Shown here: in pieces, positions 1 to 678 of the stretch
Layout: the number at the start of each line of letters is the position of its first letter
How positions within the stretch are numbered: the stretch's first letter is position 1
NCBI RefSeq assembly: GCF_003334335.1
Contig: NZ_QOWQ01000161.1
Source: Escherichia coli
Lineage (GTDB): Bacteria > Pseudomonadota > Gammaproteobacteria > Enterobacterales > Enterobacteriaceae
Reading direction: 5' to 3' (one strand)
DNA length: 678 nucleotides
Position numbers and translations under genes: made by a program
The notes under the pieces: generated by a model
The model's input: the letters and a program-made list of their open reading frames with translations, nothing else
Databases searched by the model: none
What the model was told of the DNA's origin: nothing

Positions 1-125
1 TCCGGGATATAACGGCGGTTCTCCGGCAGGAAAAACTCCCTCGCCAGTATCACACTGTGTTCCTTCAGTAACGCCTGCAGACCATACTCCAGATAGCGAT
101 TCCTGGTAGCCAGAATCACCTTCAT
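1..125 (-). CDS. Hypothetical protein, N-terminal 41 codons only (gene continues beyond window start); possibly a receiver-like/LuxR-family-type regulator N-terminus (weak)
   Basis: ATG at 125..123 with a well-spaced SD. Manual translation gives MKVILATRNRYLEYGLQALLKEHSVILAREFFLPENRRYIP with no stop through position 3. It is absent from the supplied ORF track, presumably because the visible part is short. The pattern hydrophobic-L-x-T-[RK]-[ND]-x-[YF]-L-x-x-G-L-x-x-LL resembles the beta1-alpha1 start of atypical receiver-like domains (compare GadE MIFLMTKDSFLLQGFWQL, recalled from memory). The product call is speculative. Confidence 0.4.
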   Translation of the reverse strand, partial: MKVILATRNRYLEYGLQALLKEHSVILAREFFLPENRRYIP

Positions 126-132
126 CGCAGCA

Positions 133-139
133 CCTTCCT
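133..139 (-). promoter_or_regulatory. Shine-Dalgarno sequence (AGGAAGG) for the downstream minus-strand gene
   Basis: Minus-strand sequence reads ...CATAAAAAACAGGAAGGTGCTGCGATGAAGGTG...; the purine-rich AGGAAGG lies 7 nt upstream of the ATG at 125..123. Confidence 0.5.
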
Positions 140-153
140 GTTTTTTATGCCCC

Positions 154-189
154 ATGAAAAACGGCAGACCAGAGTCCTGCGCCTGCCGT
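154..189 (-). terminator. Putative Rho-independent terminator downstream of the adhesin gene
   Basis: Exact inverted repeat acggcag (161..167) / ctgccgt (183..189) gives a 7-bp GC-rich stem. On the minus-strand transcript it is followed immediately by UUUUU (plus-strand aaaaa at 156..160). The hairpin starts 24 nt after the TAA stop (216..214). The loop is long (15 nt) but can partly pair internally (gcagac / gtcctgc). Confidence 0.45.
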
Positions 190-213
190 CATACTTCATG
201 TCACCTTCAGCAA

Positions 214-678
214 TTAAAACTCGAAGTTCACACCAACGTTCCAGGAGGCATCGCCATCACTGAATGCCACGCCTGCTTTCGCTGCGGTCTGCTCGTTGAA
301 GCGGTAACCCACACCCACTGCCAGTGCCTGCTGGTCGCTGTAACCACCAACCGCTGCCGTGGCGTTGAATTTACCCACACTGTACGGCTGGAACAGACCT
401 GTCAGGGCCGCAGACTGTGCTGCTGCTCGTTTCATTTCCTTGTGGTTTTCATTAATCTGGCGCTGCTGGCTGTCCAGACGTGCTGAATGTTGCTGCAGCG
501 TACGGGTATTGGCTGCAATCGCCTTGCTGTTTTTCTCAATGGATTGCGTGTTACGGGTGACACGGCCATCAATGGCACCAACTGCTGCATCAATACGGTC
601 AGTACGACCAGACAGGGCCACCAGACCATCGTTAACAGAAATGGTGTTCTTTGCACCTTCTGCACGGGTCAGGGTGCC
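214..678 (-). CDS. Trimeric autotransporter adhesin (YadA/Eib-like), C-terminal part: coiled-coil stalk plus YadA-type beta-barrel membrane anchor. Partial: the 5' end of the gene lies beyond the window end; stop codon TAA at 216..214.
   Basis: Manual minus-strand translation in the frame of the 214..621 ORF is open through to position 678: [154 protein letters not shown]. The last ~70 aa align closely, from memory, with the Yersinia YadA membrane anchor (...[36 protein letters not shown]..AGVAY....NASFNIEW). Present are the conserved GG pair (343..348), alternating small/hydrophobic beta-strand residues, and a C-terminal aromatic residue (Phe) typical of outer-membrane beta-barrel insertion signals. 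Upstream of the anchor is a polar, Ala/Gln/Asn/Arg-rich segment typical of a trimeric autotransporter stalk. Confidence 0.85.

Follow-up and report, generated by a model that had tools for sequence, protein, structure and literature searches.

The window, the 678-nt stretch of DNA that was analysed, carries four features, all on the minus strand. The largest is the 3' portion of a trimeric autotransporter gene of the eib family (E. coli immunoglobulin-binding proteins; 214..678), which encodes, from its C-terminal end inwards, a YadA-like membrane anchor (217..393), a coiled-coil stalk (394..609) and a putative segment of the Eib saddle (610..678). It is followed by an intrinsic-terminator-like hairpin (157..190), a Shine-Dalgarno-like AGGAAGG (133..139) and the first 41 codons of a second gene, orf-156 (MKVILATRNRYLEYGLQALLKEHSVILAREFFLPENRRYIP..., 1..125), cut by the left window edge.

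The minus-strand frame 217-678 translates into 154 residues with no stop. Its TAA stop codon occupies 214-216, and the frame is open through the right window edge. An adhesin at 214-678 had already been proposed in the first-pass annotation, and the open reading frame and its translation agree with these coordinates. In comparison with the reference records P-EibA, P-EibC and P-EibD, the changed codons of this frame are mostly synonymous (synonymous:non-synonymous, 6:2 and 16:5). Judging from these substitutions, selection on the eib frame is purifying.

A 110-codon, ATG-started open reading frame runs antisense to eib on the plus strand (154-486). It could be taken as the real gene, with the minus-strand frame as its shadow, and it is indeed present in the mechanical list of ATG-started reading frames. 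However, the same comparisons give it synonymous to non-synonymous ratios of 1:7 and 0:2, the reverse of what is seen on the minus strand. Moreover, it crosses the terminator hairpin, and no gene is annotated at this place in any of the chromosomal, phage and P-Eib reference records. Because its codon changes are mostly non-synonymous, this frame is considered a shadow that is under no selection as a protein. The substitution pattern rules it out as a true gene, an interpretation that has a negligible chance of being correct.

The C-terminal part of the fragment contains its sole significant Pfam domain, YadA_anchor (PF03895), which covers residues 96-154 and the complete model (positions 1-60 of 60, E = 6.7e-17). 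The structure of the YadA anchor (2LME) aligns with the same stretch in a PDB sequence search (E = 2.1e-19, 73 bits), and the NCBIfam model YadA_autotrans also matches, in the C-terminal region only. A YadA-type anchor had been predicted from the sequence alone, together with a GG pair and a terminal aromatic residue; the profile search bears out the first, and both others are present, as AAVGGYSD and as a C-terminal Phe. The predicted span of the anchor, 217-426, was broadly right but slightly generous, as the Pfam match corresponds to 217-393. Four segments with an alternating pattern are visible in the stretch aligning with 2LME. In the AlphaFold2 (AF2) monomer model of the 154-residue fragment, the anchor (residues 92-154) has a pLDDT below 50 and is uninformative on the number of strands; the four-strand topology hence rests on homology with YadA. 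By this homology, each monomer would contribute four beta-strands, one third of a 12-stranded barrel.

N-terminal of the anchor, where a coiled-coil stalk had been expected, residues 24-95 form ten clean heptads in a single register. The residues in position a (T V V I I L L I M S) are hydrophobic, while those in position d (I I N N N H Q N A L) are mostly Asn, His or Gln. Asn at position d is a typical feature of the stalks of trimeric autotransporter adhesins. Residues 33-83 are identical to the crystallised coiled-coil construct of EibD, 2XZR (PDB search, E = 6.6e-28), and in the AF2 monomer, residues 21-80 are helical, with a mean pLDDT of 86-96 per 10-residue block. Together, the heptads and the identity with 2XZR support the predicted stalk.

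The first residues of the fragment (1-23) probably belong to the C-terminal part of Eib's "saddle" minidomain and to the stretch leading into the left-handed coiled coil. This assignment and its boundary are taken from the published domain order rather than from structural coordinates. The last part of the EibD crystal chain 2XQH aligns with residues 1-61, five of which differ (PDB search, E = 3.7e-26).

Over its 154 residues, the fragment shares 98.7% identity with EibA and 96.8% with both EibC and EibD, in agreement with the Eib type suggested earlier. The Pfam match, the alignment with 2LME and the heptads equally support its description as a trimeric autotransporter with a YadA-type anchor. 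Since the anchor domain is common to all trimeric autotransporter adhesins and the YadA_autotrans model matches the C-terminus, the gene could in principle encode a different adhesin of E. coli or Yersinia (YadA, Saa, UpaG/EhaG or a SadA-like protein) that shares only the anchor fold. On the NCBIfam YadA model (NF033478), however, the fragment scores 75.5 bits and the full-length protein of E. coli SW070917, whose chromosome contains the window DNA, 70.5 bits, in both cases over the C-terminal region only, against a curated cutoff of 750 bits; the protein is therefore not YadA itself. Stalk and anchor together share 97-99% identity with EibA, EibC and EibD; the similarity to the YadA anchor is much lower (73 bits). 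Furthermore, the flanking stem-loop and orf-156 belong to eib loci, and no SadA, UpaG or EhaG structure was matched in the PDB sequence search at E < 0.01. On the PDB matches, the score on the YadA model and the Eib identity, a non-Eib adhesin is ruled out, with hardly any probability left to it.

The hairpin downstream of eib (GACGGCAGGC...GUCUGCCG) begins 24 nt past the stop codon, is G+C-rich and is followed by UUUUU. With an A-rich/U-rich extension, the stem spans 153-200. The RNA folds with -30.7 kcal/mol (z = -3.07), a terminator scan also matches, and the same element is annotated as stem_loop in the reference records AF151091, AF151674 and AF151675. Across five loci, the stem is kept: each difference either is located in the loop or replaces a G-C pair by G.U. 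The T-run after the hairpin varies from five to eight, with five T in the window and in P-EibD and eight in P-EibA. The hairpin at 157-190 thus fits an intrinsic terminator, as in the reference records. No RNA family was found by an Rfam scan of the window (E <= 1), and a scan of the window for sigma-70 promoters yielded no site.

The AGGAAGG motif, read directly from the sequence, stands 7 nt upstream of the ATG of orf-156 (123-125) and is invariant in five loci. The gene follows every eib gene examined, and the reference records annotate it as ORF-156A, ORF-156C and ORF-156D. Its full version in SW070917 (L001:11655-12125, minus strand) encodes 156 residues. Compared with P-EibA, nine of its changed codons are synonymous and one is non-synonymous. 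The product is annotated as hypothetical everywhere: no NCBIfam or Pfam model matches it, the PHROGs families to which it relates are all of unknown function, and it has 32 cluster representatives among 1.84 billion proteins.

With a profile built from 14 homologues, the best PDB matches of ORF-156 are helix-turn-helix domains of the GerE/LuxR type, although these matches are weak (GerE, E = 0.012). Its AF2 model is confident (pLDDT 91, pTM 0.87), and the top Foldseek matches of this model are almost all response regulators of the NarL/FixJ type (RcsB, FixJ, EvgA, VpsT), with weak scores (E = 7e-4 to 0.1, TM 0.3-0.47). The receiver-like half is short, consists of four strands and has no acidic pair following strand 1; strand 3 ends with a conserved Asp. 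On the basis of the predicted model, ORF-156 looks like a small NarL/FixJ-like DNA-binding protein, composed of a short receiver-like domain and a helix-turn-helix of the LuxR/GerE type. As a hypothesis, it might regulate the eib/eaa cassette.

At the DNA level, the window matches both the E. coli SW070917 chromosome and, in a phage collection, Escherichia phage PhiR5_2 at 100% identity. Of 5,426 complete E. coli genomes, 42 contain some match to it, always on the chromosome and often at several sites per genome; in 20 complete genomes, the identity reaches at least 99%. The original GenBank records of P-EibA, P-EibC and P-EibD, from strain ECOR-9, are 95.7-96.0% identical to it; beneath the match, they annotate eibA/C/D, the stem_loop and orf-156A/C/D.

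The gene order around eib, established from four chromosomal prophages, is J, (lom), tail fibre, orf-191/DUF4376, eib, orf-156, (orf-60), (eaa SPATE) and DinI, the last only where the flank reaches that far, and it ends at the prophage-chromosome junction. The eaa gene, downstream of eib and orf-156, encodes an S6/SPATE autotransporter. The prophage origin claimed in the first-pass annotation is thus well founded: in lambdoid prophages, eib lies at the right end, beyond the J, lom and tail-fibre genes, and it is also present within the PhiR5_2 genome. This is consistent with the literature, in which the eib genes are described as prophage-borne and linked to eaaA and eaaC on the ECOR-9 prophages (PMC3153244). 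The database entry for PhiR5_2 is that of a complete phage genome and gives E. coli K-12 MG1655 as the host, which suggests that the gene travels with a viable phage. A literature search on phage PhiR5 or PhiR12 returned nothing relevant.

The lambdoid prophages carrying eib occupy four sites: a truncated ybdK-like gene, a position beside btsS, a truncated ompW and a position beside yecD. A DinI-like gene ends the annotated flank in three of the four, and none is annotated at the ompW site (NCTC9112). The eaa SPATE gene is intact (4,008 nt) in SW070917 (L001:7374-11381, minus strand) and in NCTC9112, is split into three open reading frames in strain G1/2 (L004:2393-6357, minus strand) and is absent from the prophage of 2012EL-2448; it appears to be a cargo gene that is variably kept.

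Taken as a whole, the window very probably represents the 3' end of an eib gene, encoding a type Vc adhesin and carried as prophage cargo, followed by its own terminator and by the start of orf-156. None of the results speaks against this reading. The Eib finding is correct but already known, and the prophage setting is the standard one.

The state of the complete gene was assessed in 16 related alleles. All 16 translate into intact proteins of 386-511 residues, with a start codon and no internal stops. All begin with MSKKF, MSKKL or MNKKF, followed by a hydrophobic stretch that resembles a signal peptide, as judged by eye. In 11 of them, the C-terminal 154 residues are identical to those of the window. 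An in-frame stop or frameshift shortly upstream had been named as the mark of a pseudogene remnant; none is present in these alleles, in which the frame reaches the start codon.

A decayed eib remnant in a degraded prophage could nonetheless be suspected, as no more than the final 154 codons fall within the window, decay is frequent among prophage cargo genes, and the neighbouring eaa SPATE gene is in pieces in strain G1/2. Against such decay stand the full length and the MSKKF-type leader of every allele examined, the mostly synonymous substitutions, and a terminator and downstream gene that are intact. A pseudogene is unlikely because all 16 alleles are intact, including those 99-100% identical to the window. 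Given the intact alleles and the synonymous bias, this explanation was rejected as very improbable. The integrity and the passenger type of the window's own copy we infer from identical or near-identical records.

Comparison of these loci reveals a mosaic gene. The DNA homology between loci runs from eaa through orf-60, orf-156 and the terminator into eib, and ends around window coordinate 701-718, approximately 25-40 bp beyond the right window edge; it resumes at the 5' flank and the signal peptide. Between these points, from about 701-718 to about 1450 in window coordinates (L001:12701-13450), the passenger-coding DNA is swapped. At least three classes of passenger, with no detectable mutual similarity, are joined to the conserved 3' block. 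As far as these alignments indicate, the passenger DNA of these unrelated classes is exchanged as a cassette.

EibA-like passengers are present in SW070917, NCTC9112, SCU-104, 2013C-3033 and G1/2, and a passenger related to EibC/D, although only partly, in SW071611. The remaining class, called P here, was found in PhiR5_2, 2012EL-2448, STEC2018-553, DETEC-S792, S1-CAM-02-A, JNEC-KY177 and 2015C-3121. It comprises 134 sequence clusters, whose source names are all E. coli except for one Shigella entry. The name Eib is absent from every source of these 134 clusters, no Pfam domain other than the anchor was detected, and the PDB offered no convincing relative but one marginal match (E = 0.0026). 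The class P alleles studied here measure 417-436 residues, and most database members are shorter (350-384 residues). In PhiR5_2, the gene is located at L006:8214-9473 (minus strand); the class also occurs at loci L002, L009-L012 and L016. Residues ~184-211 of the 423-residue SW070917 protein (L001:12214-13485, minus strand) constitute an extra sequence, GLDKDGKLTEDEKSIVTPLRINDGVVT, that is absent from EibA and is also carried by the alleles of G1/2, P0001, P0021 and P0022. Possibly, this segment forms an additional connector or minidomain that separates the N-terminal domain from the stalk.

DNA identical to the window joins an EibA-like passenger in SW070917 and an unrelated, unnamed passenger in PhiR5_2. 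As the window lies wholly in the shared 3' block, the head of its gene is not decidable from the window. The Eib stalk and anchor could thus be fused to the unnamed class P passenger, as in PhiR5_2 and STEC 2012EL-2448, with a tip of uncharacterised specificity. PhiR5_2 and SW070917 both match the window at 100%, and 6 of the 11 alleles whose 154-residue C-terminus equals that of the window carry class P, for which, among the 134 clusters, neither an Eib name nor a Pfam domain beyond the anchor nor more than a marginal PDB match was obtained. On the other hand, the equally identical SW070917 has an EibA-like passenger, and a sequence situated inside the shared block has no discriminating power. 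We give a class P head slightly less than an even chance. Even then, the assignment as an eib gene would be refined and not contradicted, as stalk and anchor would still be those of Eib. A broader proposal, that the window belongs to a class P allele, that orf-156 encodes a NarL/FixJ-like regulator of eib and eaa, and that the 3' block serves as a recombination handle for swapping tips, is tentative, and its three parts are unlikely to hold jointly.

The stalk of the characterised Eib proteins binds the Fc part of IgG, and in some members IgA, without antigen specificity. Eib proteins also make the bacteria resistant to serum and cause autoaggregation and the formation of biofilms or chains. 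In published work, they are described as trimeric autotransporter adhesins that bind the Fc of IgG and IgA (PMC12511318); the EibD stalk has two binding regions for IgA and IgG (PMC7247746), and serum resistance and adherence have been attributed to the family (PMC7247748). Because the coiled-coil segment in the window is identical to the crystallised EibD segment, binding of IgG Fc is expected of the encoded protein.

The secretion steps of type Vc systems comprise Sec export, assembly of three anchors into a 12-stranded barrel, threading of the passenger to the outside and formation of a trimeric coiled coil with a distal domain (PMC12511318). By analogy with this family, the full-length protein would be exported by Sec via its N-terminal signal peptide, after which three of the 59-residue C-terminal anchors encoded at 217-393 would form one 12-stranded barrel in the outer membrane. 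The three chains would then traverse the barrel and zip up as the coiled coil specified by 394-609, and the variable passenger would be displayed at the tip. Trimerisation, export and immunoglobulin binding are attributed to the window's own allele by the same analogy.

Eib is a prophage-delivered factor of the cell surface that lets E. coli, including Shiga-toxin producers, bind Fc, resist serum and clump into chains or biofilms, and its recognition marks the contig as carrying Eib-type prophage cargo. The window itself adds nothing new, being identical to deposited sequences and near-identical to reference proteins. Two observations point further: an invariant stalk and anchor block is common to very different, partly unstudied passengers, and the always-adjacent ORF-156 looks like a DNA-binding regulator.

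The closest characterised relative is EibA of E. coli ECOR-9 (P-EibA, AF151091; AAF63234, 392 residues), which has the same residue as the window fragment at 152 of 154 positions. P-EibA also displays the same downstream arrangement of stem-loop, orf-156, orf-60 and eaaA. Its DNA is 95.7% identical to the window, with 25 substitutions and two single-base indels, the latter outside the eib coding frame. Over the whole length, the full-length product of SW070917, the chromosome identical to the window, shares 83% identity with EibA. This allele has 423 residues, with the extra passenger sequence described above that the reference EibA lacks.

EibD (P-EibD, AF151675; structures 2XQH and 2XZR) matches the window fragment at 96.8% with its residues 358-511, and the intergenic terminator region of P-EibD shows no difference to the window at 126-213. 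Upstream, EibD possesses a head of the YadA-like beta-roll type and a coiled coil that is right-handed; the passengers of the window-identical alleles mostly have no similarity to this upstream part. YadA of Yersinia is plasmid-borne and collagen-binding and is no immunoglobulin receptor. It shares with the protein encoded here the anchor family (2LME, NF033478) and the lollipop logic of anchor, coiled-coil stalk and head, but the likeness is limited to the anchor region, with 73 bits against 2LME and 75.5 bits on the YadA model.
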